Below the pieces are notes generated by a model. It had not been told where the DNA came from and searched no databases. It saw nothing but the letters and a program-made list of their open reading frames with translations. The position numbers were made by a program, and so were the translations under genes. A DNA stretch of 32,000 nucleotides from Clostridium kluyveri (GTDB lineage Bacteria > Bacillota > Clostridia > Clostridiales > Clostridiaceae), in assembly GCF_001902295.1 (NCBI RefSeq), contig NZ_CP018335.1:1852750-1884749 (forward strand), in the 5' to 3' direction. Position 1 is the stretch's first letter; each line of letters opens with the position of its first letter. Positions 2,788 to 29,951 of the stretch are shown one piece after another.

Positions 2788-2820
2788 TTTCATAAAACTT
2801 TTACAATATAGTGATATAAT
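2788..2820 (+). promoter_or_regulatory. Candidate response-regulator box (TTTCAT-N5-TTTTAC) overlapping the -35 position, plus an extended -10 (TGaTATAAT) for the TCS operon
   Basis: Direct hexamer repeat with 11-bp phasing at 2788-2804. TATAAT at 2815-2820. Same motif and the same 27-nt geometry as at 4985-5017. Confidence 0.45.
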
Positions 2821-2855: not shown

Positions 2856-3527
2856 GTGGATAAAAGACATATTTTAGTAGTTGATGATGAAAAAGCGCTG
2901 CGAAGTTTAATGCGAGATTACCTTATAAAAGCAAATTACAGCGTCTCAGAAGCTGCAAATGGAGAAGATGCTGTAGAAGTATTTTTCAATCAAAAAATTG
3001 ATTTAATCATACTTGATATAATGATGCCTAGAATGAATGGTTATGAGGTGTTGACAGAGATTAGAAAACACACAGATGTTCCTGTAATTATGCTTACCGC
3101 AAAAGATGATGAGGAAAGTGAAATATTAGGTTTTAATCTCAAAGCCGATGATTATGTAACTAAGCCGTTTTCGGCAAAGGCTCTTATGGCAAGAATAGAA
3201 GCGGTTTTCAGGCGTTATTTAAAAGAAGGGGAGCATGAAAGAATAGGAGTTCTAGAATATCATAAGAGCAAGTATGATATCATATTGGATAATAAGCCAT
3301 TGAACCTGACTAAAAGGGAGTTTGAATTGTTTACATATTTATTTATAAACAAAGGGATTGTTTTAACCAGAGAAAAAATTTTAAATAATGTCTGGGGATT
3401 TAATTATGAGGGAGACATTCGAACAGTGGATGTATATATAAAAGAACTTAGAAAAAAGCTGACTAATAAAGCTGATTATATAAAGACCATAAGAGGGGTA
3501 GGGTATGAATTTGAGGTGAAACAATGA
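2856..3527 (+). CDS. OmpR/PhoB-family response regulator
   Basis: REC domain (VVDDE, DLIILDIMMP, acceptor-Asp context, KPF) and a C-terminal winged-helix (LTKREFELFTYL, VWGFNYEGDIRTVDVYIKELRKKL). GTG start. Stop overlaps the kinase start (ATGA). Confidence 0.9.
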   Translation: MDKRHILVVDDEKALRSLMRDYLIKANYSVSEAANGEDAVEVFFNQKIDLIILDIMMPRMNGYEVLTEIRKHTDVPVIMLTAKDDEESEILGFNLKADDYVTKPFSAKALMARIEAVFRRYLKEGEHERIGVLEYHKSKYDIILDNKPLNLTKREFELFTYLFINKGIVLTREKILNNVWGFNYEGDIRTVDVYIKELRKKLTNKADYIKTIRGVGYEFEVKQ

Positions 3528-4951
3528 AACGATCTATTAAGATGAATATGTTTTTCGTTCTCAGTGGTCTCATTTTGGTAATGGTGCTTTTGTACTATAT
3601 AACTAATGCAGTATTTCTTGAAAAATATTATACGTATAAAAAGATAAGTTTTATGACAAGCAATTATGAGCATCTGCACCAGCTATACAGTAATAACAAC
3701 AATGCTTTTGAGGAAGAATTAAATACTCTTATCTACGATCATAATATAAATATTTTTGTATATCCTCAGGAAGATATGACATCTGGAATATTCCCAAGGA
3801 TTCTTACACTTCTGAACAGCAAAGCATTGATACAAAGAAGTAGTATATTAAAAAAGACTGAAGATTATACCATTAGAAAAATATCCCTTAAGAAAATGTC
3901 TTCTGAAATTATTTTATTTGCTGGAAACTTAAAAGGCAATGAGAAATTAATAATGTATCTCCCAGTAGCATCAATTAGCAGCAGTGCGGAAATCTTTAAT
4001 GAATTTTTGTTATATGTAGCACTAGCTGCATTAATAATAGGTATAGTAATTTCAATTATTATGGCAGAAAAGTTAACCAAGCCAATAACTGAAATTTCTA
4101 GAATGTCTGAGAACATGAAATTACTAGATTTCACCGGCAGGTATAAGGGAAATAGAAAAGATGAAATACAGGATTTGGGAGAAAATATGAATGTACTTTC
4201 CAAAATATTAGACAATACCATAACAGAGCTTAAAAATAAAAACAATAAGCTGGCACTTGATATTCATCAAAAAGATAGGATTGAAAAAATGCGTAAGAAG
4301 TTTTTACAAAATGCCTCACATCAGTTGAAGACGCCTATTACCATTGTAAAGGGCTATGCGGAGGGCCTTATGGATAATGTAGCGGATGATGAGGAAAGCA
4401 GAATAAATTATGCATCCACAATATATAAAGAAGCGGAAAACATGGAGGAATTAGTCATGAAAATCCTATCCCTTGCCCGTCTTGAAACAGATGACTATAA
4501 CCTAAAATTAGAGCGTTTTGACATAAATAAACTTATTGATGAGGTCATTGAAAGGTATGCTCCACTATTTGAACAACGTCAGATAATACCTAAATTTATT
4601 CATTATGATAAAGTTTTTGCTTATGCTGATAGAAATTTGATTTCCGATGTTGTATCTAACTATTTAACCAATGCTATTCATCATGTAGATGAAAATAAGG
4701 AAATAAATATTTCTGTGAGTATATGTAAAAGTTACACACGAATTGAGGTCTATAATTCTGGCAAAAATATTCCCCTAGAGGAAATAGAAAATATTTGGCA
4801 GAGTTTTTATAAACTTGAACATAAAGATGGATATAAAGGAAGTGGTCTAGGTCTTTCTATTGTTTCTGCAATAATGGAATTGCACAATTGTGAATATGGA
4901 GTTGTAAATCAAAATAGAGGAGTTGTATTCTGGTTTCAATTGGGAAGTTAA
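3524..4951 (+). CDS. Sensor histidine kinase (2 TM, HAMP-like linker, HisKA, HATPase_c)
   Basis: TM segments FFVLSGLILVMVLLYYI and LLYVALAALIIGIVISIIM. H-box SHQLKTPIT, N-box YLTNAIHH, G-box GSGLGLSIV. Translationally coupled to the regulator. Confidence 0.9.
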   Translation: MKRSIKMNMFFVLSGLILVMVLLYYITNAVFLEKYYTYKKISFMTSNYEHLHQLYSNNNNAFEEELNTLIYDHNINIFVYPQEDMTSGIFPRILTLLNSKALIQRSSILKKTEDYTIRKISLKKMSSEIILFAGNLKGNEKLIMYLPVASISSSAEIFNEFLLYVALAALIIGIVISIIMAEKLTKPITEISRMSENMKLLDFTGRYKGNRKDEIQDLGENMNVLSKILDNTITELKNKNNKLALDIHQKDRIEKMRKKFLQNASHQLKTPITIVKGYAEGLMDNVADDEESRINYASTIYKEAENMEELVMKILSLARLETDDYNLKLERFDINKLIDEVIERYAPLFEQRQIIPKFIHYDKVFAYADRNLISDVVSNYLTNAIHHVDENKEINISVSICKSYTRIEVYNSGKNIPLEEIENIWQSFYKLEHKDGYKGSGLGLSIVSAIMELHNCEYGVVNQNRGVVFWFQLGS

Positions 4952-7757: not shown

Positions 7758-7994
7758 ATGATGCACGGATATTGGGGATGGGGAATGATGTCTATGATGA
7801 TTGTATGTTTTTTACTTATAATCGCTATAGTAGTATTTTTCATGAGATCATTTAATGGTAGAAGCGATTACCGACGTGATAAGGAACCAATTGAAATATT
7901 GAACGAAAAATTAGCATCCGGTGAAATAGGTGAAGAAGAATATAAAAGAAAAAAGCAAATATTAACTGAAAAATATGACATTTCTAAGAATTAA
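7758..7994 (+). CDS. SHOCT-domain membrane protein
   Basis: An N-terminal TM segment rich in Met, Trp and Gly (MMHGYWGWGMMSMMIVCFLLIIAIVVFF) and a C-terminal SHOCT-like LNEKLASGEIGEEEYKRKKQIL. AGGAGG RBS. Confidence 0.8.
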   Translation: MMHGYWGWGMMSMMIVCFLLIIAIVVFFMRSFNGRSDYRRDKEPIEILNEKLASGEIGEEEYKRKKQILTEKYDISKN

Positions 7995-8011
7995 TTGTAT
8001 CAATCTAGGTT

Positions 8012-8056
8012 AAGGCTGTCGGCAAGAATTTCAACAACAGCATTTTCATTTTTTGT
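8012..8056 (+). terminator. Rho-independent terminator after the SHOCT gene (copy B of the ~70-bp repeat)
   Basis: Stem GCTGTCG (8015-8021) pairs with CAACAGC (8035-8041) with one mismatch, followed by TTTTCATTTTTT. The region 8010-8079 is ~85% identical to 2611-2680. Confidence 0.65.
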
Positions 8057-8248
8057 ATATTAGAGCATTTGAAATATCATATATATAATGTTAATAAATT
8101 AAAAATATTATATAAAATATATATTTATTAATTAAATCCATTCGATAATTTAGTTGATATACACTTCAAACAAAGGTTTTTAAGCTGGCTTCTTAAGAAC
8201 AAGGAAAGAAACCTAATAAAAAATGAAGTGATTTTTTGGAGGGTGATT

Positions 8249-8854: not shown

Positions 8855-8962
8855 AACATTTTTATAAGCATTTTTAAACAGAACAGGCAGCTTACCTTGT
8901 GGGTCAGCTGTCTATTTTGTGTTTGTTTTTTGAAAGACAAAAGATTAGTATTTTGTTATTAA

Positions 8963-9058
8963 GTGATTCAGAGGTTCAGGTGGAGTTTGCTATAGAGAAA
9001 TGCTTATTTCTACCTTTGAAAAAATGAAGTATTAGTAATTCTGGCCTTCGGATTAGAG
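8963..9058 (+). repeat. Copy 1 of an unexplained ~90-bp dispersed repeat (R2)
   Basis: AGGTTCAGGTGGAGTTTG...GAGAAATGC.TAT.TCTAC...TTT.AAA.AAAATG... is shared with 31365-31457 in the same orientation at roughly 75-80% identity. No conserved reading frame. Confidence 0.7.
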
Positions 9059-9063: not shown

Positions 9064-9250
9064 TTATATCACTATATAACAAAATCATATCACTATATAA
9101 CGCATAATTGTCTTTAAAATATAGTTGAAGTTTTGATAATATAAGGCATTATAGCAATATCTAATTTTAAAGTTATATACACAGGGGCATATTGTTCTTG
9201 TACTTGTTATCCCATAAAATATGGATAGATAATAATTTTCATTTAATAAT
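9064..9250 (+). promoter_or_regulatory. Regulatory module P1: two perfect 15-bp direct repeats phased 21 bp apart, a sigma-A promoter and a Fur-like box
   Basis: ATATCACTATATAAC at 9066-9080 and 9087-9101. -35 TTGTTC (9192-9197), 17-nt spacer, -10 TAAAAT (9215-9220). aGATAATaATTtTCA at 9227-9241 matches 12/14 of the 7-1-7 Fur consensus TGATAATnATTATCA. Homologous to 29655-29842. Confidence 0.6.
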
Positions 9251-9300: not shown

Positions 9301-12108
9301 ATGAAAGAAAAAGGTAAAAAAACTTTATCTGTTTACAGTATAATGTTACTATTGGTATTTAGTTTTATATTCTCGATAAATGTAAAAGCTGAAAATTCAT
9401 CATCAATAGGTATAAACAGGATAGGAGGAGCAGATAGATATGAAACAGCTGTAAAAATTGCCCAAGCAGGCTGGCAGTCATCTGATTATGCAATATTGGC
9501 AAACGGAGAGAATTATCCAGATGCCCTTTGTGCCGTTCCTTTAGCAAAAACTAAGGATGCTCCGGTGCTTCTGACCACAGGAAGTAATTTGAACCAGGAT
9601 TCACTGAATAAGATGAAAGAGCTAAAAGTTAAGCACGTAATTGTAGTTGGCGGAAAAGGAGCAATATCGGACAATATTATAAGTGACATAAAATCACAGG
9701 GCATATCTGATGTAGAAAGAATAGGTGGACAAAATAGATATGAAACTTCCGTAAAAATAGCTGAAAAGCTAGGGACTGTTACTAAGGCGGTTGTTACCAG
9801 CGGGGAGGGATATGCAGATGCACTTTCAGCATGTACTGCTGCGGCTATAGAGAAAATGCCAATACTTTTAACAAAGAATACCGATTTACCAGATGTAACA
9901 GCAGATTACATAAAATCAAATCCTCAAATAACCACAACTTATATAATAGGAGGAACGGGTTCTATAAGTACTTCTGTTGATAATGAACTTCAATATCAAA
10001 AGAGAATTTATGGTCTTGACAGATATGAAACAAATGCCGCAGTATTAAATGAATTTGCTTCAGATTTTGACTTCAAAAATGTTTATCTGGCACTGGGAAA
10101 TGGAGCTACAGGCAGTGAATTTGCAGATGCCCTTACTGGGGGAGCTCTAGCAGCTAAAATGAAAAGTCCTCTTGTAATAACAGGAAAAACTTTGAGTTCT
10201 GCTACAGAGAAATTTATTAAAGAAAAAATCTATAAAGACTGCAATCTTACAGTAATAGGTGGAACAGCTAATATATCTGATTCGCTGGCTCAACAAATTA
10301 GGGATTCCTCTGGGGCTTCTGAAACCTCTGAATCACCTACAGGCGGCAGCAGTAGTGGTGGAGGATCTGGAAGTTCAAGTTATAAAAATATTACTTCAGC
10401 AGTAAAAGAATATTCTTCCTATAAAGATATTGTAAGCAGTATAAACAATGGTGAATATTTTAAATTAGAAGATGATAATTCTGACACCATGAACCTACAA
10501 TTAAAAAAAGATAATGTAAATCCCATTCAAGGTGTATTTCAAAATGCTGTGGATGTATATACTAGTACAGGGACTGTAGATGAACAACAGATAAGATATG
10601 ATGTAGAAAAAGTAAATGAGGAATGGGATGTAATATATGGAAAAAATATTACCGTAAAAATTGGAGAAGATACTAAAAGTTTAAGTGCTTTTTTTGGAAG
10701 TTTAGGCTCCAAATATTTTGATAGTAATGGTAAATTAAATGCAGATATAATAGTAGAACAGGTAAATAAAAAGCTTGGAAGTGATTATGATTACGATGAT
10801 TTTAGGACAAATTTAATTGAAGGTATAAAAAACTATTTTGATAATAATTCATCATTAGAGAAGAATTCATTGCAACTTAAGATTATGGGATTGAAAGTAA
10901 ATAGCATTAAAAAAGGTACATCTACTTTGTATACTTCTACTTCTTATGGAAAAGATGCTTTAAATAAATTGATAGATATATTAATACCATCTGCAGATAC
11001 AGATATTACTGGAGTGTATACTATTTATATAGAAGGAAATAACTATATAAAAATTGATGTTAAAAATGCAGATACTGCGCAACCCGTAAAAATGGCAATG
11101 GATATTAACTATTATTTTGTAGAGAATTCAGAAGGGAAACTGGAAGTGTTTAATACATCAGATGGACAGGGAGTTAGTGTTAAATCAGGCAGTAAGGTTT
11201 ATGTACCGATGTTTGATAAAACCATTGACATACCTGGGGAAGGCGGATTGTTACAAGAACAGATAGATTGGATGACCAATAAAGAATTTTATACTTTTAC
11301 TGGAAGGGAAACTTCAGATAACTCTATGATTAAATCCATAAATCTCACAGAGGAAGACCCTGCTAAGTTTAATGAAGCGTATCCTGATGGGGATTTTAAA
11401 GCTCCGGTTCATTGTTTTGTAATAGAACTTAATGATACAGTGCCAACAGATGGTGCTCCAGTAACTTTCGATGCTGATTTTCAGGCCACAGAAGAAGGAT
11501 TAAAAGGATATAATGATCTAAATGGGGAAACAGAAGGATTGGCTTCCAGTATTAATTTTATATTCCAGGGCAAGCTTAATATAGCTTCTGCAGCACAACC
11601 TGTAAAAATGGCAATGGATATTAACTATTATTTTGTAGAGAATTCAGAAGGGAAACTGGAAGTGTTTAATACATCAGATGGACAGGGAGTTAGTGTTAAA
11701 TCAGGCAGTAAGGTTTATGTACCGATGTTTGATAAAACCATTGACATACCTGGGGAAGGCGGATTGTTACAAGAACAGATAGATTGGATGACCAATAAAG
11801 AATTTTATACTTTTACTGGAAGGGAAACTTCAGATAACTCTATGATTAAATCCATAAATCTCACAGAGGAAGACCCTGCTAAGTTTAATGAAGCGTATCC
11901 TGATGGGGATTTTAAAGCTCCGGTTCATTGTTTTGTAATAGAACTTAATGATACAGTGCCAACAGATGGTGCTGCAGTAACTTTCGATGCTGACTTTCAA
12001 GCCACAGAAGAAGGACTAAAAGGATATAATGATCTAAATGGGGAAACAGAAGGATTGGCTTCCAGTATTAATTTTATATTCCAGGGTAAGCTTAATATAA
12101 TTGATTAA
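9301..12108 (+). CDS. Secreted cell-wall-anchored surface protein: signal peptide, 3 CWB2 repeats, Gly/Ser linker, unknown domain, 2 x 172-aa repeat
   Basis: Signal peptide ending VKA|EN. Three CWB2-type units with GADRYETAVKIA, GGQNRYETSVKIA and GLDRYETNAAVL. Linker SGASETSESPTGGSSSGGGSGSSS. The C-terminal duplicated module begins AQPVKMAMDINYYF. Confidence 0.85.
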   Translation: MKEKGKKTLSVYSIMLLLVFSFIFSINVKAENSSSIGINRIGGADRYETAVKIAQAGWQSSDYAILANGENYPDALCAVPLAKTKDAPVLLTTGSNLNQDSLNKMKELKVKHVIVVGGKGAISDNIISDIKSQGISDVERIGGQNRYETSVKIAEKLGTVTKAVVTSGEGYADALSACTAAAIEKMPILLTKNTDLPDVTADYIKSNPQITTTYIIGGTGSISTSVDNELQYQKRIYGLDRYETNAAVLNEFASDFDFKNVYLALGNGATGSEFADALTGGALAAKMKSPLVITGKTLSSATEKFIKEKIYKDCNLTVIGGTANISDSLAQQIRDSSGASETSESPTGGSSSGGGSGSSSYKNITSAVKEYSSYKDIVSSINNGEYFKLEDDNSDTMNLQLKKDNVNPIQGVFQNAVDVYTSTGTVDEQQIRYDVEKVNEEWDVIYGKNITVKIGEDTKSLSAFFGSLGSKYFDSNGKLNADIIVEQVNKKLGSDYDYDDFRTNLIEGIKNYFDNNSSLEKNSLQLKIMGLKVNSIKKGTSTLYTSTSYGKDALNKLIDILIPSADTDITGVYTIYIEGNNYIKIDVKNADTAQPVKMAMDINYYFVENSEGKLEVFNTSDGQGVSVKSGSKVYVPMFDKTIDIPGEGGLLQEQIDWMTNKEFYTFTGRETSDNSMIKSINLTEEDPAKFNEAYPDGDFKAPVHCFVIELNDTVPTDGAPVTFDADFQATEEGLKGYNDLNGETEGLASSINFIFQGKLNIASAAQPVKMAMDINYYFVENSEGKLEVFNTSDGQGVSVKSGSKVYVPMFDKTIDIPGEGGLLQEQIDWMTNKEFYTFTGRETSDNSMIKSINLTEEDPAKFNEAYPDGDFKAPVHCFVIELNDTVPTDGAAVTFDADFQATEEGLKGYNDLNGETEGLASSINFIFQGKLNIID
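11077..12105 (+). repeat. In-frame tandem duplication, 2 x 516 bp, inside the surface-protein gene
   Basis: 11077-11592 versus 11593-12108: 7 substitutions before the last 3 codons (6 synonymous, 1 Pro to Ala). The central ~370 bp are identical. Confidence 0.95.
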
Positions 12109-12283: not shown

Positions 12284-13453
12284 ATGAAAATTAACTTTGC
12301 AGCACCTAATAATGTAATATTAGAAAATAATGCTGTAAATAATATTGCTGCAGTTGTAAAACAGAAAAATGCAAAAAAGATTCTGTGTGTTTTTGGAGAA
12401 AGAATTAAAGCGACTGGTATTTCTGATATGATTATTGATACTTTAAAAAGCGAAAACGTAGATGTAATAACTTATGAGGGAGTAATTTCAGAACCTCCTA
12501 AATACATAGTAAAAGAAATTTATGAATTAGGCAGAGAAAAGCATATAGATGTCATAATAGCAATTGGAGGCGGAAGTACTATTGATGCAGCTAAAGCCGC
12601 GAATTTAATGCTAACTAATAATATGAATATAGAGGATATGTTGTTATATAAGAAGATAATTAAAAATAAAGGCAAATTTTTTATTGCAGTTCCTACTACA
12701 GCTGGTACAGGAAGTGAAGTAACTGGTGCAGCTGTTATAACTGATGAAAAACTAAAGAAAAAATTAATTCTAATTTCAAATTTTATAGTTCCAGATTTGG
12801 CCATAATTGATCCCATTTTAACATTAAAATTACCTAAAGATATAACTGTATCTACAGGTATAGATGTGTTTTCACATGCTTATGAAGCGTATACAAGCAG
12901 TAATGCTAATGATATGTCAGATACTCTAGCACTAAGAGCATTTAAAATTGTAGTGGATACATTACCCCAACTTGTTGATGATTTAAATAATGAAATTTTT
13001 AGAGAAAAAATGAGTTATGCGAGCATGTTGGCTGGCCTAGCTTTAAATGGGGCAGGATCTGGTATGGGACATACCATAGCACATTCCATAGGTGCTAAAT
13101 GGAATATAGCTCATGGGTATGCTTGTGCACTGGCATCGCCGGAATCTATTAAAAACTTGGCCTTGTATATCCCACATAAAGCAGAAAAATTACTATATAT
13201 ACTGAATGACAGTACACAATATGAATCCTTGGGAGAAGAATTAAGTGAACAATTTATGAAGTTTAATGAAAAAGTAGGGGTACCTAACATTGAGGAATTA
13301 GGGATAGATTCCTCCAAAAATTTAGATATAATAAATTCTATAGCAGATGATGTGATTAATATGACGGCTTTATTTGGAGGAGATATTACACAGATAGATA
13401 AAAACAAAATAATGGAACAATATTCATTAATATTAAATAGGATAATTTTTTAA
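12284..13453 (+). CDS. Iron-containing (group III) alcohol dehydrogenase family protein
   Basis: GGGSTIDAAKA, PTTAGTGSEVT and His-rich metal-site motifs (FSHAYEAY, GHTIAHSIG). GGGG RBS upstream. Confidence 0.9.
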   Translation: MKINFAAPNNVILENNAVNNIAAVVKQKNAKKILCVFGERIKATGISDMIIDTLKSENVDVITYEGVISEPPKYIVKEIYELGREKHIDVIIAIGGGSTIDAAKAANLMLTNNMNIEDMLLYKKIIKNKGKFFIAVPTTAGTGSEVTGAAVITDEKLKKKLILISNFIVPDLAIIDPILTLKLPKDITVSTGIDVFSHAYEAYTSSNANDMSDTLALRAFKIVVDTLPQLVDDLNNEIFREKMSYASMLAGLALNGAGSGMGHTIAHSIGAKWNIAHGYACALASPESIKNLALYIPHKAEKLLYILNDSTQYESLGEELSEQFMKFNEKVGVPNIEELGIDSSKNLDIINSIADDVINMTALFGGDITQIDKNKIMEQYSLILNRIIF

Positions 13454-13584: not shown

Positions 13585-13613
13585 TTTACTGATAATATTT
13601 TCAGTGATATAAT
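13585..13613 (+). promoter_or_regulatory. Near-consensus sigma-A promoter pointing rightward (TTTACT - 17 nt - TGaTATAAT)
   Basis: -35 TTTACT at 13585-13590, 17-nt spacer, extended -10 TGATATAAT at 13605-13613. Confidence 0.55.
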
Positions 13614-13668
13614 TTAGCATGTATTGATAATGACATTCATTATCAATACATGCTAAATTTATTTTTAC
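13611..13668. promoter_or_regulatory. Perfect 23-bp-arm palindrome containing a 17/19 Fur-box match; may also terminate adh transcripts
   Basis: AATTTAGCATGTATTGATAATGA-CAT-TCATTATCAATACATGCTAAATT (13611-13659), followed by TATTTTT. The core GATAATGACATTCATTATC (13626-13644) matches GATAATGATAATCATTATC at 17/19 positions. Confidence 0.55.
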
Positions 13669-13789
13669 AAAAAGTAAATTTAAAGAATTAATTGGCGAAT
13701 TGTCTTTTTAAATAAGCAGAAAGACCAACTATAATAAGTCAAGTACTTTTTAAAAAGAAGTTATATTAAGTTTATGATTTTAAAAACTG

Positions 13790-15330
13790 TATGACAAAAA
13801 GACTTGCACTGCTACAAGTTTGAAATGGTTATAATTGCAAAAAAATTATGAGGTTTCTTTAATCTCATAAGGTTTATTGTTTTTTAGAACAGCATAAGTG
13901 ATATGGCATAGTTTTCTGGAAACTGCACCAATACAGGTTAAATGATGTTTGCCTTCGACTCGTTTTTTCTGGTAGAAGGCATTTAAAACAGGATCATTGA
14001 ATGCAGCTACTAACGCAGCCTGGAACAAAGCTTTACGCAAGTAAGGCGAACCTCTTTTACTCATAACATTATGTATGTTTTCATATTCTCCTGATTGAGA
14101 AACAGAAGCATCAATACCAGCATAGGCAACGAGCTTTTTTGGTGAATCAAATTTATTAATATCACCTATTTCACCTAGTATTGTGGCACCAGTAACAGGA
14201 CCAATTCCTGGAATTGTTGTAATAGGTGATTCTAAAGAAACCATAAGTTTTTTGATTTCAGTTTCGGTATCTTTTACCTGCTGTTCAATGAAAGACATCT
14301 GCTCAATTAGAGCTTTTAGCTGGAAGGAGAAACTATCCTTGCAGAAGGTAATACCAAAGGAATTGGAGGCAGTTGATTTTAACTTTTCAGCTTTTGCGTC
14401 ACCTATTTTCTTGCGACTTAGTTCTGCAAGAAGTTGTGCCAGAGTATCAGCAGAAATAGATTCAAAATCGCTGGGTGAAGAGAACTGTAAAAGAATCTCT
14501 TTTGAGGTCTTACCAAATATGTTTGAAAAAATAGATTGATATTCAGGAAATACCTGATCAAGGACACAAATAATTTTTCGCTTTAAATCGGAAATGGATG
14601 ATACTAAGTATCCACGGAATCTCGTTAAGGTTCTTAAGGAAAAAATGGTTTCATCAGAAAGCACTGTTTCAACAAAAGAGCCGTAGCGTATTAAGTCTGC
14701 GATTAAAATAGAGTCAATAGTGTCATTCTTTCTTTTACGGATTTCAGTACCTTTACGCCATCCATCTGTTTGAATTGGATTGATGACATGAATAAGGAAA
14801 CCTTTATCGTATAAAAAAGAATAAACGGCTAACCAATAGTGCCCAGTTGCTTCCATACCAATTTCGAAATTAGCAGGATTATCAGAATGGCTGGTAAGCT
14901 TAGAAAATAAGGCTTCGCCACCCTCAGAAGTATTAGGAAAAGAAAATGCCTTGAATGCAATCTTACCTGCATCATCCATCATGGAAGCAACATGATTATT
15001 TTTACCAATATCAATACCTAAGTAAAACATAATATCACACCTTTAAAAGAGTATTTTAGATTGGGAATCCCCTTATCTAGTAAGCGTCACTACCTCGTGA
15101 TAAATACGAAGAAATACCAAATGGTATTCAACATCCAACTCATTCGCGAACTGCTTATTAGAAAGAGGTATCAGTCTTTCGAGTACGAGTTCTAAGACTC
15201 AAGGAGAAAGCGATAATCCTCTCAATCTAATAAAACAATTATCTCTCAATTAGAGAGAAAACTAAAGAATAGGTTATAGGTTTTCCTAATGAAATAACCT
15301 AAATATATTATACGAGTATTCCTGTAATAA
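13790..15330 (-). mobile_element. IS110-family insertion sequence no. 1 (boundaries approximate)
   Basis: Complete DEDD-type transposase gene with a ~300-nt GC-richer non-coding region 5' of it (15031-~15330) and a short 3' flank. No terminal IRs, as expected for this family, so the ends could not be fixed by eye. Confidence 0.55.
13846..15030 (-). CDS. IS110-family transposase (DEDD N-terminal domain plus Transposase_20-type C-terminal domain)
   Basis: YLGIDIGKNNH, MEATGHYW, KNDTIDSILIADL, PGIGPVTGATILGEIGDINKF, MSKRGSPYLRKALFQAA. 394 aa. Confidence 0.92.
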   Translation of the reverse strand: MFYLGIDIGKNNHVASMMDDAGKIAFKAFSFPNTSEGGEALFSKLTSHSDNPANFEIGMEATGHYWLAVYSFLYDKGFLIHVINPIQTDGWRKGTEIRKRKNDTIDSILIADLIRYGSFVETVLSDETIFSLRTLTRFRGYLVSSISDLKRKIICVLDQVFPEYQSIFSNIFGKTSKEILLQFSSPSDFESISADTLAQLLAELSRKKIGDAKAEKLKSTASNSFGITFCKDSFSFQLKALIEQMSFIEQQVKDTETEIKKLMVSLESPITTIPGIGPVTGATILGEIGDINKFDSPKKLVAYAGIDASVSQSGEYENIHNVMSKRGSPYLRKALFQAALVAAFNDPVLNAFYQKKRVEGKHHLTCIGAVSRKLCHITYAVLKNNKPYEIKETS

Positions 15331-16950
15331 AGAGTTTTAGACTTTGAATGAAATAAAAAAACCTGATATAAATATATTGTGTCACTTGCAAGAAGACAAC
15401 AACAATCTATATCAGGAGGAAAACAATATGAATAATCGAATTATAGTTCCTAACACATTAATATTAGGGATAGACATAGCAAAGGAAAATCACTATGGTC
15501 AATTTGTAGTAAATGGTGAATATATAAAAAAGCCGTTCCTTATAAAGAATACCAGAGAATCTTTCGAATGTCTATTAGATTCAATCAGACAATTAAAGGC
15601 GAAATATAACTTAGATTATGTATTAGTAGGAATGGAGCCAACAGGTCACTATTGGAAGAATCTTGCTTACTACTTAAAAAGTCAAGGGATAGAGCTATGC
15701 TTGGTCAATCCATATCATGTTAATAAAATTAAGGAGCTTGAAGATAATAGTCCAACTAAGAATGACAAAAAAGATGCCAAGATTATTTCTAAACTTATAT
15801 ATCAAGGTCAATACCTAAACTGCATGTTTGAGGAAGAACTCTACGTAAATCTTCGATTATGCAGCAACAATAGGCAAGAGCTAAAAAAACAGTTTATCTC
15901 AGAAAAAGTAAGACTAATAGCGCTATTAGATGAATACTTTCCAGAATTTAAAAAGATGTTTTCAGATATCTTAGGAAAGTCCGCTTTATGTATACTGAAA
16001 ACATGTCCTTTCCCACAAGATATAGTGAATATAGGAGTTTCTGAGCTTACTCAAAAGCTTCTAGATGCTACACATAATCGTGTTGGATTTAAGAAAGCAG
16101 AGCTGGTTTTTAATGCAGCTAAAACTTCAATAGGAGTGCCTGTAGGGCTTGAAGGGGCCAGATATAGATTAAGGCTTATTTTAAGGCAATTAGAAGCTTT
16201 ACAAAAGGAACTAGATGATGTGGAAAAGCTCATGGAAGAATATCTTTTGCAGACAGGTTATTCAGAATATTTACTTAGCATAAAAGGTGTAGGCATAGTA
16301 ACAGCTGCGGGTTTTCTAGCTGAAATTGGAGACATATCAAAATATGACAGCTATAAGCAAATACAGAAAGTGGCAGGACTTAACTTGAAAGAAACCAGCT
16401 CTGGCATGAAAAAAGGTAAAACTAAAATTAGTAAAAGAGGTCGTTCAAATTTAAGAAATATTCTATATCAGGCAGCAACTGTTATGGTAGCTAAGAATAC
16501 TGCATTTAAAGAAATATATACCCATTTAACGAAAAGACAGGAAAATCAATTAACCGGAAAACAAGCAATAGTTGCACTAAGTGTAAGACTTATAAAAGTT
16601 ATGTACACTTTATGCAAGAAAAAAACAACATATACACATGACAAAGTTCATGGGTTGACAAGTTATGGTATATTGAAATTTATAGTTCTTTAAGAGTAAG
16701 GTAAAGCGCGTTCAAACCCCCATAAGGGCTTAATTGACCCAGTATACGAGGATTAATGCTAGCACCTGCTCTAAAATGCAGAACGAAGGAATGTAGAGAC
16801 ATAGATATGTACTCCGTGAGACATGGTAGGGTAAGCATTAGAGCTATATAGGTGTGTTTCCTTCAAAATATTGGAATATCACTTACACTCTTATGCACAC
16901 GTTCAACCTTCTCCATCCAGTATTACCTATATATTCAATATACTCACATA
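15331..16950 (+). mobile_element. IS110-family insertion sequence no. 2, IS1111-like layout (boundaries approximate)
   Basis: Complete transposase gene with a short 5' flank and a ~250-nt GC-richer non-coding region 3' of it (16694-~16950). A 9-bp inverted repeat CCTGATATA/TATATCAGG (15362-15370 and 15408-15416) lies in the 5' leader. Confidence 0.5.
15428..16693 (+). CDS. IS110-family transposase
   Basis: LGIDIAKENHYG, MEPTGHYW, KNDKKDAKIISKL, IKGVGIVTAAGFLAEIGDISKY, ISKRGRSNLRNILYQAA. ATG 15428 has an AGGAGG RBS. The TTG 15344 extension in the ORF track has none. Confidence 0.9.
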   Translation: MNNRIIVPNTLILGIDIAKENHYGQFVVNGEYIKKPFLIKNTRESFECLLDSIRQLKAKYNLDYVLVGMEPTGHYWKNLAYYLKSQGIELCLVNPYHVNKIKELEDNSPTKNDKKDAKIISKLIYQGQYLNCMFEEELYVNLRLCSNNRQELKKQFISEKVRLIALLDEYFPEFKKMFSDILGKSALCILKTCPFPQDIVNIGVSELTQKLLDATHNRVGFKKAELVFNAAKTSIGVPVGLEGARYRLRLILRQLEALQKELDDVEKLMEEYLLQTGYSEYLLSIKGVGIVTAAGFLAEIGDISKYDSYKQIQKVAGLNLKETSSGMKKGKTKISKRGRSNLRNILYQAATVMVAKNTAFKEIYTHLTKRQENQLTGKQAIVALSVRLIKVMYTLCKKKTTYTHDKVHGLTSYGILKFIVL

Positions 16951-17044
16951 TTTAAATTTAACCACTTGTTTATAAATAATGAAATTCTATGAAAATAGAA
17001 GTAAATAAAAGATAAATTAAAATTTATTGAGGTAGGAGAAAAAA

Positions 17045-17793
17045 ATGACAAAAAATATTAAACTTTTTTGTTTGCCATATGCTGGGGGCACATCTATGTA
17101 TTATATGAAATGGAAACAATATTTATGCAGCAATATTGAAGTATATCCTCTAGAAATGGCAGGAAGGGGAAAAAGATTTGGTTCAAATTTGTTTGAGAAT
17201 ATGTATGATGTTGTAAAGGATCTATTTAGTATATTAGCAAAAGAATTAGATAAATTAGGTGACTTTGAATATGCATTTTTTGGACATAGCATGGGAACTG
17301 TTATAATTTATGAACTAATGAAAAAAATAAAACAATATAATTACAAAGAACCCATACATATATTTATGTCTGGTAGAGTTCCACCTAGCTTTCAGGAAAA
17401 AAAATTATTTACAATTTAAGTTATGATGAATTTAAAAGAGAAATATCAAATTTAGGGGGAGTACCTGATGACATAATTAATAACAATGATGTATTTGATA
17501 TATTTCTCCCTATATTAAGAGCAGATTACAAAATAATCGAAACTTATAAATTTTCAAAATCCCCTAAATGGAATTTTGACATTTCAGTATTAAATGGGAG
17601 AAATGATCCAGAGGTTGAGGATTATTATATTTCTAAATGGGACATGTATACAAATAAAAAATGTAATTTTTATTTATTTGATGGAGGTCATTTCTTTATT
17701 AATGAAAATACAGTTGAAGTTGTAGAGAAAATAAATAATATTCTTATTAGAAATTTAGGAGAAAAATCTTTTTTCAAGGAGGCTAAAATTTAG
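17045..17793 (+). pseudogene. Type II thioesterase (GrsT/TE-II family) interrupted by a frameshift in an A8 run
   Basis: N-terminal part in frame 1 (LFCLPYAGGTSMYY, GHSMG) stops at 17419. The C-terminal part (LSYDEFKREISNLGGVPDD..., LPILRADYK, GGHFF) continues in another frame to TAG 17791-17793. One extra A in A8 (17397-17404) restores a single ~249-aa ORF. Confidence 0.85.
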
Positions 17794-18776
17794 TGTTTAA
17801 CAATGAAAAGTTTTTTTGGTCACCTGCGGCAAGATGGGAAAAAAAAGATGGTCAGGTAAAGATTGAAGTATTTTGCTATAAAGATTATATTGTTGAGTTA
17901 TTTCCTGAATTCTATTTTTTTACACAGAAAGGTGTTTATGTAAATGACTTAATTGATAAATTTCCGAAATATGATAAGGACAGATTAAAAAGTTTTATAC
18001 AGGATTTAATTAGAAAAAAGATATTAGTTGATTCTCCACTTATACCTCATGAATTATTTTATAGTGGAAATTACCTTTTTCAAAATAAACATAGTGAAAA
18101 TATAAAATATGATAAATTAGAATTTGAAAATTTTAAGAGTATGCAGTTAAATAGAAATTACAAAACGCCTAAGGGTCTGAAGATAAATTTATATAGTGAT
18201 GAGCAATATCCCTATTGTATAAGTGAACGAAAAACATGCAGAAGTTTTAATACAAATGAAATAATTAGTTTTGAAGTATTCTCAAAATTAATAGCTGTTT
18301 TTAGACAAAGAAGAATTAATGGACAAATTAAATATTACTATGCTAGTGCTGGAGGACTTTACCCTATAGACATATATATTTATATAAAGGAGAAGAGAGT
18401 AGAAAATTTAAAACAAGGTCTTTATTATTATAGTCCTTTAGATAATTCAATAAATATTGTAGATGAATGTTGTCATGTAAACAAAAATGCACACTATTTT
18501 ATGAATCAATCTATATTTAATCAATCGGCTTTTTCAATTTTTTTTATTTATAATATGGAAGTTACAATGCCTAAATATGGTGGTATCGGATATTTATATT
18601 CGTGTATAGATATAGGTATAATGGTAAGTTCACTTACTTTTGTTGCAGGACTATATAATATTGGTTTATGTTCTATAGGAGATATGAATTTTCATAAAAT
18701 AGAAAAATATTTTCAGCTTAATAAAAATCAAGTTTATATACATACAGTGGAATTAGGACTGAAGTTAGAAGATTAA
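17793..18776 (+). CDS. SagB/McbC-type (nitroreductase-fold, FMN) dehydrogenase; probable azoline oxidase
   Basis: RKTCRSF, YYASAGGLYPIDIYIYI, GLYYYSP and a C-terminal GD...F pattern typical of the SagB/ThcOx family. The GTG start overlaps the TE-II stop (TAGTG). AAGGAGG RBS. Family call is by motif only. Confidence 0.7.
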   Translation: MFNNEKFFWSPAARWEKKDGQVKIEVFCYKDYIVELFPEFYFFTQKGVYVNDLIDKFPKYDKDRLKSFIQDLIRKKILVDSPLIPHELFYSGNYLFQNKHSENIKYDKLEFENFKSMQLNRNYKTPKGLKINLYSDEQYPYCISERKTCRSFNTNEIISFEVFSKLIAVFRQRRINGQIKYYYASAGGLYPIDIYIYIKEKRVENLKQGLYYYSPLDNSINIVDECCHVNKNAHYFMNQSIFNQSAFSIFFIYNMEVTMPKYGGIGYLYSCIDIGIMVSSLTFVAGLYNIGLCSIGDMNFHKIEKYFQLNKNQVYIHTVELGLKLED

Positions 18777-18819: not shown

Positions 18820-21800
18820 ATGGATTCTTATGTAAGATCGGAGAAGCTTGAAATCAAAAATTTTCCAAAAGAATTGTCGACTTTATTAAAAATAGCTGGT
18901 GACTTTTCCAGAATAAATGGAAGAGGGATATATTTTATTGAAGAAGATGAATCGGAAATATTTTTGCCGTATTATAAATTGTATGAAAATGCAGTAAGAT
19001 TATGCAGTGGATTACAGAAATTAGGTGTAAAAAGGGGAGATAAGTTAATATTTCAGTTAAAAAGTGAATTTAATTTTATAAATATGTTTTGGGCATGCAT
19101 AGTAGGAGGATATATACCGGTTCCTCTCCCAATTTCAAATATATATTCTTATAATTCACAAGATCTAGTTAGATTTTTAAATGTTACAGAGCAGCTATCA
19201 CATCCTAAAATTATTTCTGAAAAATTATTTCAAGAGTTCTTCAATGAAGGTGCATACAGTAATTTAACTGTAATATATTTTGAAGATATTGATAAATCCT
19301 ATGAACAGAATAATAAAATTCAGCTGCCTTTGCCATCTGATATTGCTTTTATTCAATTTTCCTCGGGAAGTACAGGAAATCCTAAAGGGGTTATACTTAC
19401 ACATAATAATTTAATTCATAATATATTTCAAATTAATGAAAAAAGTAAAAGTACCAATATGGATTTTATGGCTAATTGGATGCCACTTACCCATAATCTG
19501 GGATTAATCGCTCTTCATATTGCACCTTTAGGTGCTTTTAGTAATCAAATTAAGTTCAATACAGAGCTATTTATTAAAAAACCTGAATTATTTATGAAAA
19601 AAATAACTATTTATAAAGCTACTATGTCGGGCTTCCCTAATTTTGCATTATCCTTGCTTTTAGAAAGAATACCAGATGATGAATCTCAAAATTATGATTT
19701 ATCTCATCTCAGGCTTATTTATAACGGTGCAGAACCTATATCAAATAATGTAATTCAAAAATTCAATAAAAAGTTTTCCAAATGGTATTTAAATAAAAAG
19801 GCTATGCATGCTACCTATGGAATGGCAGAAGCAAGTGTTATCATCTCTCTTCAGGATATGGATGATTCTATTATCAGTCATAAAATTATAAGAAATGAAT
19901 TTTCGTTAAATAACAATATTATATATTCAGAAGACAATGAAGATACTATAGAATTTGTTGATGTGGGATATCTGCTGCCAGAAATGGAAGTCAAAGTATT
20001 GGATGATGATGATATTTTATTGGAAAATGAAAAGGTAGGTAATATTCTGGTAAAGGGTCCTAATATAACATCTGGATATATTAATGATGATGGAATGAAT
20101 GAAAAATTATTTCTAGATGGATTTCTAAGAACGGGAGATTTAGGATTTGTTAAAGATGGAAGATTGGTAATAACAGGACGCAGAAGAGATTTGATCTTTT
20201 TTAATGGGCAGAATTTCTATGCTCATGATATAGAACATTTATGTGAAGAAATTGATGAAGTTGATTTTGGACAAGTGGCTGCATGTGGGGTTACAAATTA
20301 TAAAAATGGTAGTGAGGAATTAATAATTTTCATACAATTTAGGGAGGAAATTAAAAATTTTAGTGAAGCTACCTTAAGAATAAAAGAATATGTAAATAGA
20401 AGAATAGGACAAAGTATTACCCATATATTGCCTGTAGAATATATACCTAAAACTGCAAGTGGGAAGATACAAAGGCAGGAGCTTGGACAGAGGTATTTGA
20501 ATGGCGAATTTCATGATATCATTTTAATGATAAATGAAGAAATAAAAAACTGTAATAATAAAAATAATACAGCAAGAAATAAAATAGATTTTGATTTAAT
20601 AAAGTTATGGGGCAGAATATTGAACTTGGAAAACATACGAATTCAGGATGATTTTTTTAAACTTGGAGGAGATTCTCTGAAATTAATTCAAATATGTTAT
20701 GAAATAAGTAATATATATAAAGTTGATATAAATTCAAGTGAGTTTATAAAGTTAGGTAATATTTTAAATATAAGTGATTATATTCAAAATAATAAAAATT
20801 TAATAAGTGAACAAAAATATCCTGTATCAGCACCCGATACTAAAAATCTTAATGTTCCATTTCCTTTATCCGAAGTACAGTCTGCCTATTTTACAGGGAG
20901 AAACAGTGGATTTGAAATGGGAGGGGTATCAACTCATATATATTATGAAATAGAAACAAAGCTGGATATAGATAAATTTAACCAAAGTCTCAATAAGGTA
21001 ATAAAACATCAGCCTATGTTGAGGGCCATAATTCTTGAAAGTGGCCAGCAGAAAATACTTGAAAGTGTGCCAAAATACAATATAAAAGTGGAAGATATAA
21101 GTGAACTCAATTATGACAGCCAGCAGGAAAGAATATTGGAAGAAAGAGATAGGATGTCTCACTATATATTTAAAACAGATATATGGCCTCTATTTGAATT
21201 CAAAGCTTTTAAGACAAATATCAACAAATACTATATGCTTATAGGATTTGATCTTTTGATATCAGATGGGACTAGCATGCGTATATTGGTGAAAGAAATA
21301 ATAGAAAATTATGATTGCTTTCATAAAGGCTACCAAAAGCTTAAGTTTAATTTTAGAGATTATGTAACGGCATGCGAAGAATTTAAGATATCAAAAGTTT
21401 ATGAAAATGATAAAAAATATTGGATGGAAAAACTCAAGGATTTTCCACAGGCACCTAAACTGCCTTTAAAGCAGGAGCCTTCAGAGGTGGCAAGCCCTCA
21501 TTTCAAAAGACAGAATAAAATTATAAGTAAAAATATCTGGGAGAATATAAAGAAAAAGGCCAAAGAAAATAATATAACTCCTTCCGTACTTTTGTGTACA
21601 GCCTATGCACAGATACTAGGCCACTGGAGCAATGAACCTCATCATGCGATAAATGTGACTGTATTTACAAGATATCCTTTCCATGAGGATGTAAATAAAA
21701 TCATAGGGGATTTTACATCAGTAATGTTACTTGATGTAGATTTAAAAACCGGTACATCTTTTTGGGAAAAGGCATCAGAGGTTCAAAGTTCTATGATGGA

Positions 21801-22401
21801 AGCGCTGGAGCACAGACACTACGATGGAATTAATTTTATAAGGGATATATCAAAATATAATGGATTGGGAGCAAAAGCTGTAATGCCTATAGTGTTTACA
21901 AGTCTACTGTTTTCCATGGACAATGAGGAAAAAGGAGTAGGATTTACAGAACTTGGGGATATAAAAATGGGAGTAAGCCAGACATCACAGGTATATCTGG
22001 ATTATCAGGTAATGGAGATAGGGGGAAATTTATCTATAACATGGGACTATGTAGAAGAATTGTTTGAAGAAGATATGATAAATACCATGTTCCAGCAGTA
22101 TGTAAAGCTGGTGGAAAGTTTACTGGAACACAGGGAATATAGACTTCAGGCAGAAGAAGAGACAATAAAATTTATAGATAATTATAACCACAGGGAAGAA
22201 TTCATACCTGAAACCACCCTTCAGGAGCTGTTTATGAAAAAGGCAAAGGAATGCCCTGAAAATACAGCTCTCATATTTGAAGACAGAAGTATGAACTATA
22301 GGGAACTGGATATTAAATCAAACCAGGTAGCCCATTACTTAAAACAGCAGGGATTTGGCAGCAGTGACTTTATAGGCATAGGTAGTGTAAAAAGTTTATG
22401 A
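18820..22401 (+). CDS. NRPS megasynthetase, 5' fragment (FAAL - carrier - heterocyclisation (Cy) - start of A domain); native coding sequence ends at 22380 where an IS is inserted
   Basis: FAAL motifs FSSGSTGNPKGV, YGMAEA, TGRRRDLIFFNGQNFYAHDIE. Carrier LGGDSL. Cy motifs FPLSEVQSAYFTGR, RAIILESGQQ, DLLISDGTS, GDFTS, PIVFTSLL, SQTSQVYLDYQ. A1 motif MNYRELD. The last 7 codons plus the stop are IS-derived. Confidence 0.92.
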   Translation: MDSYVRSEKLEIKNFPKELSTLLKIAGDFSRINGRGIYFIEEDESEIFLPYYKLYENAVRLCSGLQKLGVKRGDKLIFQLKSEFNFINMFWACIVGGYIPVPLPISNIYSYNSQDLVRFLNVTEQLSHPKIISEKLFQEFFNEGAYSNLTVIYFEDIDKSYEQNNKIQLPLPSDIAFIQFSSGSTGNPKGVILTHNNLIHNIFQINEKSKSTNMDFMANWMPLTHNLGLIALHIAPLGAFSNQIKFNTELFIKKPELFMKKITIYKATMSGFPNFALSLLLERIPDDESQNYDLSHLRLIYNGAEPISNNVIQKFNKKFSKWYLNKKAMHATYGMAEASVIISLQDMDDSIISHKIIRNEFSLNNNIIYSEDNEDTIEFVDVGYLLPEMEVKVLDDDDILLENEKVGNILVKGPNITSGYINDDGMNEKLFLDGFLRTGDLGFVKDGRLVITGRRRDLIFFNGQNFYAHDIEHLCEEIDEVDFGQVAACGVTNYKNGSEELIIFIQFREEIKNFSEATLRIKEYVNRRIGQSITHILPVEYIPKTASGKIQRQELGQRYLNGEFHDIILMINEEIKNCNNKNNTARNKIDFDLIKLWGRILNLENIRIQDDFFKLGGDSLKLIQICYEISNIYKVDINSSEFIKLGNILNISDYIQNNKNLISEQKYPVSAPDTKNLNVPFPLSEVQSAYFTGRNSGFEMGGVSTHIYYEIETKLDIDKFNQSLNKVIKHQPMLRAIILESGQQKILESVPKYNIKVEDISELNYDSQQERILEERDRMSHYIFKTDIWPLFEFKAFKTNINKYYMLIGFDLLISDGTSMRILVKEIIENYDCFHKGYQKLKFNFRDYVTACEEFKISKVYENDKKYWMEKLKDFPQAPKLPLKQEPSEVASPHFKRQNKIISKNIWENIKKKAKENNITPSVLLCTAYAQILGHWSNEPHHAINVTVFTRYPFHEDVNKIIGDFTSVMLLDVDLKTGTSFWEKASEVQSSMMEALEHRHYDGINFIRDISKYNGLGAKAVMPIVFTSLLFSMDNEEKGVGFTELGDIKMGVSQTSQVYLDYQVMEIGGNLSITWDYVEELFEEDMINTMFQQYVKLVESLLEHREYRLQAEEETIKFIDNYNHREEFIPETTLQELFMKKAKECPENTALIFEDRSMNYRELDIKSNQVAHYLKQQGFGSSDFIGIGSVKSL

Positions 22402-28621: not shown

Positions 28622-29599
28622 TTACTTGATTCGGTGAATATTCCTGTAATTTTTTGGTCCTATGCCATAAGTTTTTTTAAAAATTCCAGCAAAATGTCCA
28701 GCATTATTATACCCTACTTTTGCTGCGATGTTTTTGATACTGTAATCTGAATCTTTTAATAACAAAAGGGCATAATTCATACGCATTTCTCTTAAATAAT
28801 CATAGGCTGTAGCCCCATAAATTTGTTTGAAGGCCATTTGAAATCTTGTTGTGCTCATGTTTGCAATTTTACCTAATTCCACTATAGAAGGATAAGAAGA
28901 TAGATTTTTTTTCATAAAATTAACAACTTTTTTTAAATATCTTAAATCTTTATTATCTAACTTTACACTTAAGGATTCCTGATATTGTCTTTGTTCTAGA
29001 TTGTGGGTAATTAAGGATAGTATTTCTAGAATTTTGCTTTCAAAATATAGTTGCTGGGAAGTGCCTTTTGCCTGGCAATCTCTAATCTGTTGAAAAATAA
29101 AATTTAATTCAGGAATATTAGGATTTTGTGATAAAAAGTGAAAAGCGTCTTTATGATTTTTATAATCTTTTAAATATTCATGATTCAAAAAGTTATGATA
29201 ATAATCTTCAGTTATTAATATTTTAGTAAAACGAGCTGGCTTTCCCACATCACAATAAGCATAGACCAATTTACTAGTATTTATATAGTAACAAATACCC
29301 CTTTCTACAAGGTTCAGTTTTTTACCTTTTATTTTAAAAGAACTGGAATCTGTTTCAAATTGACTTATCTCTAAATAATTTTGACTAATTTCAGATATAC
29401 GTACAAAATTTTCTTTTGGAGTAAAATCTGCAATCAATATAAAGAATAAATTATTCCAATTGATTTTTCGAAGAAATCCTTCTCCATATTGAGGAAACAT
29501 CTTATATGTACTGTCATAAGGGTAAGAAAGTTCAGGTATATATACAAAGTTTAGTTGTTTTAGGGCTATCTCATAATATTCTTCAAGGGATTTAATCAA
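28622..29599 (-). CDS. AraC/XylS-family transcriptional regulator with an uncharacterised N-terminal sensing domain
   Basis: C-terminal double HTH (LSSYPSIVELGKIANMSTTRFQMAFKQIYG and IAAKVGYNNAGHFAGIFKKTYGIGPKNYR). Convergent with the NRPS genes and divergent from the MATE operon. Confidence 0.9.
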   Translation of the reverse strand: MIKSLEEYYEIALKQLNFVYIPELSYPYDSTYKMFPQYGEGFLRKINWNNLFFILIADFTPKENFVRISEISQNYLEISQFETDSSSFKIKGKKLNLVERGICYYINTSKLVYAYCDVGKPARFTKILITEDYYHNFLNHEYLKDYKNHKDAFHFLSQNPNIPELNFIFQQIRDCQAKGTSQQLYFESKILEILSLITHNLEQRQYQESLSVKLDNKDLRYLKKVVNFMKKNLSSYPSIVELGKIANMSTTRFQMAFKQIYGATAYDYLREMRMNYALLLLKDSDYSIKNIAAKVGYNNAGHFAGIFKKTYGIGPKNYRNIHRIK

Positions 29600-29879: not shown

Positions 29880-29951
29880 ATGAGGATTGCTATTGCGACA
29901 GTTACATCTAAAGATGTTTTAAATGATACAGCAACAAGAAAAAACCCATAA
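29880..29951 (+). CDS. Candidate 23-codon leader/small ORF (MRIAIATVTSKDVLNDTATRKNP)
   Basis: Strong SD AAAGGAGGG 5 nt before the ATG. First ORF downstream of promoter P2 and 26 nt upstream of the MATE start. No homology evidence. Confidence 0.3.
   Translation: MRIAIATVTSKDVLNDTATRKNP

Follow-up and report, generated by a model that had tools for sequence, protein, structure and literature searches.

Homologous promoter regions with paired repeats in 21-bp phase at both borders of a Clostridium kluyveri NRPS cluster: a predicted AraC-family regulon of a surface protein and an exporter

The 32,000-nt stretch of Clostridium kluyveri DNA analysed here (contig NZ_CP018335.1; hereafter the window) carries a nonribosomal peptide synthetase (NRPS) gene cluster of the aryl/acyl-thiazole type and two similar intergenic regions, P1 (9064–9250) and P2 (29655–29842), which are the subject of this report. 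P1 lies 5' of a gene for a CWB2 surface protein (9301–12108, plus strand), the 935-aa product of which contains, according to domain searches, three CWB2 repeats, a rare 245-aa domain and two orphan 172-aa repeats. The gene that follows, also identified by domain search, encodes an Fe-dependent alcohol dehydrogenase (Fe-ADH; 12284–13453, plus strand). P2 separates two divergently oriented sets of genes. On the minus strand is the gene for an AraC-family regulator (28622–29599), a 325-aa protein that is 100% identical to a C. kluyveri protein and to which Pfam and a structure model assign a cupin-like N-terminal domain and two helix-turn-helix (HTH) motifs. On the plus strand are a small open reading frame (ORF) of 23 codons (29880–29951), whose start codon corresponds in the alignment to the CWB2 start codon next to P1, and the gene for a MATE efflux transporter (29969–31342), which domain searches and gene neighbourhoods identify as the conserved partner of the AraC family concerned.

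The layout is clearest in strain CP110856.1, which has no insertion sequence (IS) elements at this locus. There, the genes for a two-component system, small genes and those for YdjM, the CWB2 protein (preceded by P1), Fe-ADH, a thioesterase, a SagB-type oxidase, the NRPS and a U32-family protein follow each other on one strand; after the U32 gene come the AraC gene on the opposite strand, P2 and the MATE gene, so that P1 and P2 bracket the NRPS cluster. The NRPS of CP110856.1 is a single 2141-aa protein; the domain order is A-T-Cy-A-T-R, with the Cy motif DLLISDG. The preliminary description had placed the surface-protein gene 20 kb away from the exporter, which is true of the window, but the gene is not remote: in CP110856.1 it opens the cluster at the 5' edge, on the same strand. 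The spacing in the window is inflated by two IS110-type elements (13724–17033) and by an IS at 22381–24225. The latter interrupts the NRPS gene, while the IS110-type elements, inserted 10 nt ahead of the start codon, separate the thioesterase gene from the region upstream. This gene is also frameshifted (124 aa instead of 249), and the IS insertion in the NRPS gene together with this frameshift indicates that the pathway is broken in the window strain. A 750-bp patch of the window diverges from CP110856.1 far more than the remainder (these signs of decay concern 13724–17033, 17045–17800, 21212–21963 and 22381–24225). In the GTDB representative of C. kluyveri, the locus is absent.

P1 and P2 are homologous. 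A collinear duplicated module of ~190 bp had been claimed in the preliminary description, and MAFFT alignment and repeat finding recovered every element of it at its place. BLASTN aligned 195 nt of the two copies with an identity of 72.8% (E = 9e-25). The homology is longer than first noted, extending from ~9060 and ~29650 on the left into the ribosome-binding sites (RBS) and start codons on the right (9301 and 29880), which gives a unit of ~240 nt with a column identity of 69% over 237 module columns. Only two copies of the module are present in the window. Each begins with two 15-bp direct repeats in exact 21-bp phase on the plus strand. In P1, both are perfect copies of ATATCACTATATAAC (9066–9080 and 9087–9101), a candidate AraC half-site. 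The P2 repeats, recovered by the repeat search and as a matrix-scored pair, are ATATCACGATAAAGT (29657–29671; 11/15) and ATATCATAATATAAC (29678–29692; 13/15), the former overlapping a promoter-like site for araC on the minus strand (TTGACT-17-TATGTT, 29674 to 29646). Two further blocks are shared, both on the plus strand. The first, of the type TTTAAAATAT.GTTG, reads TTTAAAATATAGTTG in P1 (9113–9127), where it is -35-like for a promoter directly 3' of the repeats, and TTTAAAATATGGTTG in P2 (29703–29717), where the opposite strand is -35-like for the araC promoter. The second, ATAAGG.ATTA.AG, reads ATAAGGCATTATAG in P1 (9141–9154), a candidate -10 with a GGGA discriminator or a site for another protein, and ATAAGGGATTACAG in P2 (29731–29744).

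Further downstream, both copies contain a rightward promoter-like pair with a 17-nt spacer: TTGTTC (9192–9197) and TAAAAT (9215–9220) in P1, at a position kept in Marinisporobacter, and TTGCTT (29782–29787) and TAAAAT (29805–29810) in P2. The distance from the start of the second repeat to the start of the -35 is 105 nt in P1 and 104 nt in P2. The -10 lies within a 31-nt core (9212–9242 and 29802–29832, plus strand) that is identical at 30 of 31 positions and includes the Fur-like sequence AGATAATAATTTTCA (9227–9241 and 29817–29831). The chance expectation of this pattern in the window is 0, and a 30/31 segment is unusual given the overall identity of 69% (permutation P = 0.004). The repeats and their phase, the promoter-like pairs, the distances and the core of the preliminary description were thus all reproduced.

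The AraC protein belongs to a widely distributed family in which the repeat pair recurs. An alignment search with AraC homologues yielded 79 loci from many genera, among them Marinisporobacter, Tissierellales, Lachnospiraceae, Peptoniphilus, Anaerococcus, Parvimonas, Fusobacterium necrophorum and Fretibacterium. Nearly all of these loci have two direct repeats, 21 bp apart and with the core TATCAC[G/A]AT, located 5' of the AraC gene at 20–90 nt from its start codon. Beside AraC orthologues (47–69% identity), the pair was found at ~55 distinct loci in dozens of genera. Even a paralogue of 31% identity on a C. butyricum megaplasmid has the same repeat pair, there divergent from ABC-ABC-MATE genes and near an ECF transporter and genes for an NRPS and a polyketide synthase (PKS). 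A 17-nt position weight matrix derived solely from the repeats of other genomes was used to score 21-bp-spaced pairs in the window; it ranked P2 first (24.2 bits) and P1 second (20.1 bits), with the next pair at 10.9 bits, while shuffled controls gave a mean maximum of 10.0 and a highest value of 19.0. It is thus very probable that the neighbouring AraC-family protein has its site in the 21-bp-phased repeats. The preliminary description had proposed AraC-type recognition, and both the family-wide repeat pair and the ranking by a matrix from foreign genomes speak for it, as far as candidate sites can. The OmpR-type response regulator encoded at 2856–3527 was considered as the repeat-binding protein and rejected, as its two-component system (2856–4951) is not co-conserved with the motif. 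A lone repeat-like site, TATATCACTATATTGTA (2802–2818, minus strand; 13.3 bits), lies ~40 nt 5' of this OmpR-type gene; since ~2 sites of at least 12 bits are expected by chance in the window, it is probably a chance match.

The AraC protein itself matched Pfam HTH_18 (E = 7e-21) and HTH_AraC, and PDB profiles of the DNA-binding domains of AraC, MarA, Rns and GadX. Its AlphaFold model (pLDDT 84) has a beta-rich, cupin-like domain at residues 18–130, and the top Foldseek matches were ToxT, Rns and CsvR, in which a cupin-like pocket is likewise combined with two HTH motifs. The model predicts an N-terminal domain of the ligand-binding or dimerization type. The likeness to these three proteins is one of fold only (12–19% identity, whole-chain TM ~0.3), and their regulons are unrelated.

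The gene divergent from AraC almost always encodes an exporter, either a fused ABC half-transporter pair, a MATE pump or both. In at least a dozen loci, a second repeat pair directly follows the AraC stop codon and faces an operon for two permeases, two ATPases and an SBP_bac_5 lipoprotein. The best score of this lipoprotein was to NikA (352 bits, with a cut-off of 393), followed by the staphylopine receptor CntA. The second pair of Fusobacterium necrophorum is directed at a gene for a TonB-dependent receptor. Such second pairs being common, one AraC with two promoters is usual in this family. A related NRPS cluster in Anaerococcus includes a DtxR-type iron repressor, chorismate and shikimate genes, an aryl-AMP ligase and a Cy domain. 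From this gene content, it is plausible that the family serves systems of the metal-chelate type, and the siderophore-like context claimed in the preliminary description gains support from the NikA- and CntA-like importers, the TonB-dependent receptor and the DtxR and aryl-acid genes of Anaerococcus. An AraC gene adjoining U32 and NRPS genes was found at only three other loci, most genomes having the AraC/exporter pair without any NRPS, and homologues of the SagB-type oxidase were found in other NRPS/PKS clusters, without an AraC of this family.

Several observations concern the spread of these genes. The AraC orthologue is ~99% identical among assemblies of Thomasclavelia, Dorea, Blautia, Oscillospiraceae and Peptococcaceae, and the Anaerococcus-type cluster adjoins genes for a relaxase and MobC; the system seems to be passed on horizontally between anaerobes of the gut and others associated with humans. 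The U32-family protein (27116–28417), with a weak TrhP-like match, lies inside the thiazole-type NRPS cluster and is kept beside NRPS genes in other genera too; its role could be that of a tailoring enzyme, as a hydroxylase that needs no oxygen.

Two rightward promoters are predicted in each copy, namely an upstream candidate and the downstream TTGTTC/TTGCTT-17-TAAAAT pair. The upstream one is marked by the TAAGG.ATTA block, located 55–56 nt from repeat 2 (55 nt in P2) in C. kluyveri and in four unrelated clades despite differing intervening sequence. This block resembles a -10 (TATAAG/TATAAA) followed by a GGGA discriminator, and in P1 a promoter-like TTTAAA-16-GATAAT match precedes it. It may be the start of AraC-dependent transcription, in which case a repressor bound to the core may block both predicted promoters. 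On the other strand of P2, the repeats overlap predicted promoter sites of araC, which fits autoregulation. No clear terminator was found between the CWB2 and Fe-ADH genes, so P1 may also serve Fe-ADH, whose gene may be co-transcribed with that of the CWB2 protein; a role of Fe-ADH as partner of the NRPS reductase domain is plausible.

Although two modules of one AraC also occur in other genera, these have only the repeat part of ~44 nt in common, with the remainder not alignable, whereas P1 and P2 of C. kluyveri can be aligned over the full 240 nt. In a four-way alignment, both copies were collinear with the AraC-MATE intergenic region of Marinisporobacter, with which they share the repeats, TATAAGG, the -35 TTG.TT, the -10 CATA[A/G]AAT and AGATAATAA. 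Being alignable throughout with an exporter-type region, P1 appears to be a copy of such a promoter region and not an ancestral second module. Neither is it a fresh copy of the present P2, given that the sequence between its repeats, ATATAACAAAATCATATCAC, is nearer to the Marinisporobacter outgroup than that of P2. Among homologues of the CWB2 protein, the nearest (37–39% identity over the 245-aa domain) is encoded in an ordinary cell-envelope locus without the module, which points to acquisition of the module at the CWB2 gene.

Over 371 nt, P1 of CP110856.1 differs from that of the window solely by a 21-bp deletion that removes exactly one perfect repeat unit, the one at 9087–9101. Parsimony and the outgroup suggest that the two-repeat form of P1 is ancestral, and the P1 repeats appear to have been maintained. 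The loss in CP110856.1 could result from slippage between perfect repeats and work as a switch. Immediately left of P1, a 69-nt sequence termed D3 (8958–9026, plus strand) is 77% identical to 31360–31428, just past the stop codon of the MATE gene, with weaker likeness extending to ~100 nt. Its order matches the head-to-tail junction of a unit composed of module, ORF, MATE and D3, so that D3 may be a duplication scar, and it may hold a tiny ORF (VEFAIEKCLFLPLKK / VEFVCEKCVSLL). A search for coding remnants of AraC or MATE left of P1 found none.

Considering these data together, P1 and P2 are probably paralogous copies of one AraC-controlled region, placing the surface protein and the exporter in a predicted regulon under a single regulator. 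Given that the exporter pairing divergent from AraC is conserved, P2 would be the ancestral bidirectional region, between araC and an export operon of the small ORF, MATE and ABC genes. P1 would be a later copy of the exporter-type region that now stands before the CWB2 gene, and probably before Fe-ADH too, at the left border of the cluster. A dimer of AraC would bind the two phased repeats of each copy and, in response to a small molecule, activate rightward transcription at both, so that the surface-protein gene and the export pump are probably switched together. The ligand would probably be the product of the cluster or its metal complex, and through the overlap of the P2 repeats with its own promoter, AraC would set its own level. 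The near-invariant core, spanning the -10 and the first transcribed bases, would likely receive a second, negative input, possibly from a Fur-type metal repressor.

Some of our data weigh against this interpretation. With ~105 nt from the repeats to the best -35/-10 pair downstream, the distance is large for a direct activator of the AraC type, so either the weaker second promoter directly after the repeats or action at a distance must be invoked. The CWB2 protein is an orphan, unconnected with NRPS clusters elsewhere. The NRPS and thioesterase genes of the window strain are broken, while CP110856.1, with the intact cluster, has one P1 repeat only; neither strain combines an intact P1 site with an intact pathway. 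Concerning the metal repressor, the window contains four 7-1-7 sites with two or fewer mismatches, where ~1.3 are expected by chance.

The 12/14 match of AGATAATAATTTTCA to the 7-1-7 Fur consensus, claimed in the preliminary description, was confirmed, but such matches are only modestly above chance and the site is little conserved: in orthologous promoters, only AGATAATAA is shared with Marinisporobacter. At the position of the Fur-like site, most other genera carry an inverted repeat, GGTTAG-N6/10-CTAACC. The core thus weakly suggests a Fur site. A motif scan gave a separate, independent hint that the cluster is under metal control: it found a perfect palindrome with 23-nt arms at 13611–13659, between the Fe-ADH gene and the thioesterase-oxidase-NRPS genes. 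Its centre (13626–13644) matches the classic 19-bp Fur box at 17 of 19 positions (0.03 expected), a predicted box in a palindrome that also scores as an intrinsic terminator. Just upstream, GATAATATTTTCA (13591) lies within the spacer of a promoter-like TTTACT-17-TGaTATAAT. The inverted repeat of the other genera is located just after the -10, in the 5' leader of exporter- and importer-side modules, with a constant stem and a loop of variable length (N6 or N10). It was seen at L011, L012, L014, L022, L027, L035, L045, L049, L050, L052 and other loci, and C. kluyveri and Marinisporobacter are without it.

Could a global metal repressor of the Fur family, acting on the invariant core, be the shared regulator, with the repeats mattering only for araC autoregulation at P2? 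The core is the best-conserved segment of the module, its Fur-like site stands just after the -10, AGATAATAA is kept in Marinisporobacter, and GATAATATTTTCA and the classic Fur box precede the thioesterase and NRPS genes. Autoregulation at P2, however, leaves the two perfect repeats of P1 unexplained, and with the chance rate of such matches and the different inverted repeat of most genera, we consider this explanation quite improbable. More weight, though still as an unlikely case, is due to the possibility that P1 is a functionless relic, left behind when the exporter locus was segmentally duplicated or rearranged, with D3 as the scar, and that the likeness of the copies reflects recent common descent instead of shared regulation. 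D3 similarity does stand beside both copies in the order of a head-to-tail junction, CP110856.1 has lost one P1 repeat with nothing else changed, the cluster is decaying in the window strain and the CWB2 protein is unlinked to NRPS clusters elsewhere. The copies are nevertheless ~30% diverged, hence not recent, and yet the homology ends exactly at the start codon with the RBS kept. Moreover, the P1 repeats do as well as those of P2 when scored with the family matrix, they retain outgroup-like spacer bases that P2 has lost, and the core is preserved at 30 of 31 positions.

A transcribed cis-regulatory RNA common to the two mRNAs, such as a riboswitch or an attenuator leader, would make use of the ~150–230 nt between the repeats and the start codon, and the 23-codon ORF after P2 could be a leader peptide. 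Rfam returned 0 matches at the gathering threshold and, in a permissive search, only Gut-1 at chance level (E = 0.61), the fold energies were like those of shuffled sequences (z = -1.06 and +0.91), and the most conserved element across the family is a direct DNA repeat. With no Rfam family and no significant folding, an RNA element was rejected as very improbable. The IS-rich window and the presence of D3 at both copies might also bring to mind a generic dispersed repeat or a miniature mobile element, an idea that we regard as barely credible. There are two copies in 32 kb, without terminal inverted repeats or target duplications, and P2 has its orthologue in the intergenic region between AraC and exporter genes of other genera. 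The absence of matches in plasmid and phage collections led us to reject a mobile element. The exact core was also absent from 185,579 GTDB species genomes and from the JGI metagenomes, which shows rarity and not copy number within the source genome. A weak resemblance between the P2 core and a repeat in L105 was attributed to chance in AT-rich sequence.

Shared control by AraC, the interpretation favoured here, has close parallels in known systems. In the Yersinia high-pathogenicity island, which encodes the thiazoline NRPS product yersiniabactin, the AraC-type YbtA is divergent from ybtPQXS, containing two fused ABC transporters and another pump (PMC11225919, PMC3672683). YbtA acts on four operons via repeat sequences, together with Fur (PMC11225919); its repeats in the receptor, biosynthesis, transport and own promoters make up one regulon, to which Fur adds iron repression (PMC11225919, PMC3672683). 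The AraC described here is likewise divergent from a fused ABC pair and/or a MATE pump, in an arrangement resembling ybtA / ybtPQXS / psn, and in other genera a second repeat pair precedes genes for an importer or a TonB-dependent receptor, in C. kluyveri the gene with which the NRPS cluster opens. The hosts differ, being anaerobic Firmicutes and Fusobacteria, and in most genomes no NRPS accompanies the pair of AraC and exporter. The second target of C. kluyveri, a CWB2 surface protein, is no receptor of a known type, and the whole promoter was duplicated, not just the binding site. The likeness to YbtA and PchR is one of gene context: NCBIfam matches were all below the cut-off and covered the AraC domain only, and tblastn against plasmids found generic AraC proteins only. 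PchR of Pseudomonas aeruginosa is an AraC-type regulator that requires the thiazoline siderophore pyochelin as effector and recognizes a conserved, repeated PchR box in the biosynthesis, receptor and regulator promoters (cited in PMC3672683). The system described here is alike in combining an AraC-type regulator with a conserved repeated box, but its box sequence is not that of PchR.

The closest precedent for the layout proposed for P1 and P2 comes from a Firmicute. In Bacillus subtilis, the AraC-family activator Btr, which controls bacillibactin uptake, binds as a dimer to two direct repeats by the -35 of PfeuA, and a Fur box is located in the initial transcribed region (PMC3333878). PfeuA, with its Btr repeats and Fur box, thus provides a precedent. 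The domain architecture is different, Btr having a C-terminal substrate-binding-protein domain and the AraC described here an N-terminal cupin-like domain in its model. The Btr repeats abut the -35, whereas those of C. kluyveri are ~105 nt from the best -35 and ~10 nt from a weaker -35-like TTTAAA, and the repeat sequence differs.

Control of siderophore systems by AraC-type proteins plus Fur is well known (YbtA, PchR, Btr), and no new mechanism is proposed here. It is plausible that the system of C. kluyveri belongs to this known class of AraC-controlled metallophore-type regulons, its unusual traits being the duplication of a whole promoter and the strain polymorphism in repeat number. If true, an uncharacterized thiazole-type NRPS cluster of a strict anaerobe would have a testable regulon with a likely regulator, a DNA site and two target promoters, and the cluster would have recruited an extra gene by copying an entire promoter. 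In many anaerobes of the gut and mouth, the AraC family and its repeat pair mark operons for exporters and for importers of the NikA-like or TonB-dependent kind, and the repeat site could help to find genes of metallophore traffic in such genomes. A bolder proposal, which we hold to be rather unlikely, is that a widespread, undescribed AraC regulon, defined by the 21-bp TATCAC repeats and the block at 55 nt, governs both the export and the uptake of metal chelates in anaerobic Firmicutes and Fusobacteria, species of the human gut and mouth among them; duplication of its promoter would have wired in an orphan S-layer-type protein, and gain or loss of a 21-bp repeat would be a heritable on/off switch.

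A function of the CWB2 protein as receptor or partner of the NRPS product is speculative. Its C-terminal 590 aa had no informative homologues, and Pfam searches up to an E-value of 10 returned nothing meaningful; the AlphaFold model of this part was unusable (pLDDT 48). The 172-aa units at its C-terminus are encoded by two tandem 516-bp repeats (11060–12091) that are 97% identical, and no homologue of these units was found in 1.8 billion representative proteins. Metagenome contigs break at the 516-bp repeat. Another repeat of the window, 95 nt long and with 84% identity between its copies, is located at 2582–2676 and 7981–8075, each copy with a hairpin-like GCTGTTGG...CAACAGC.

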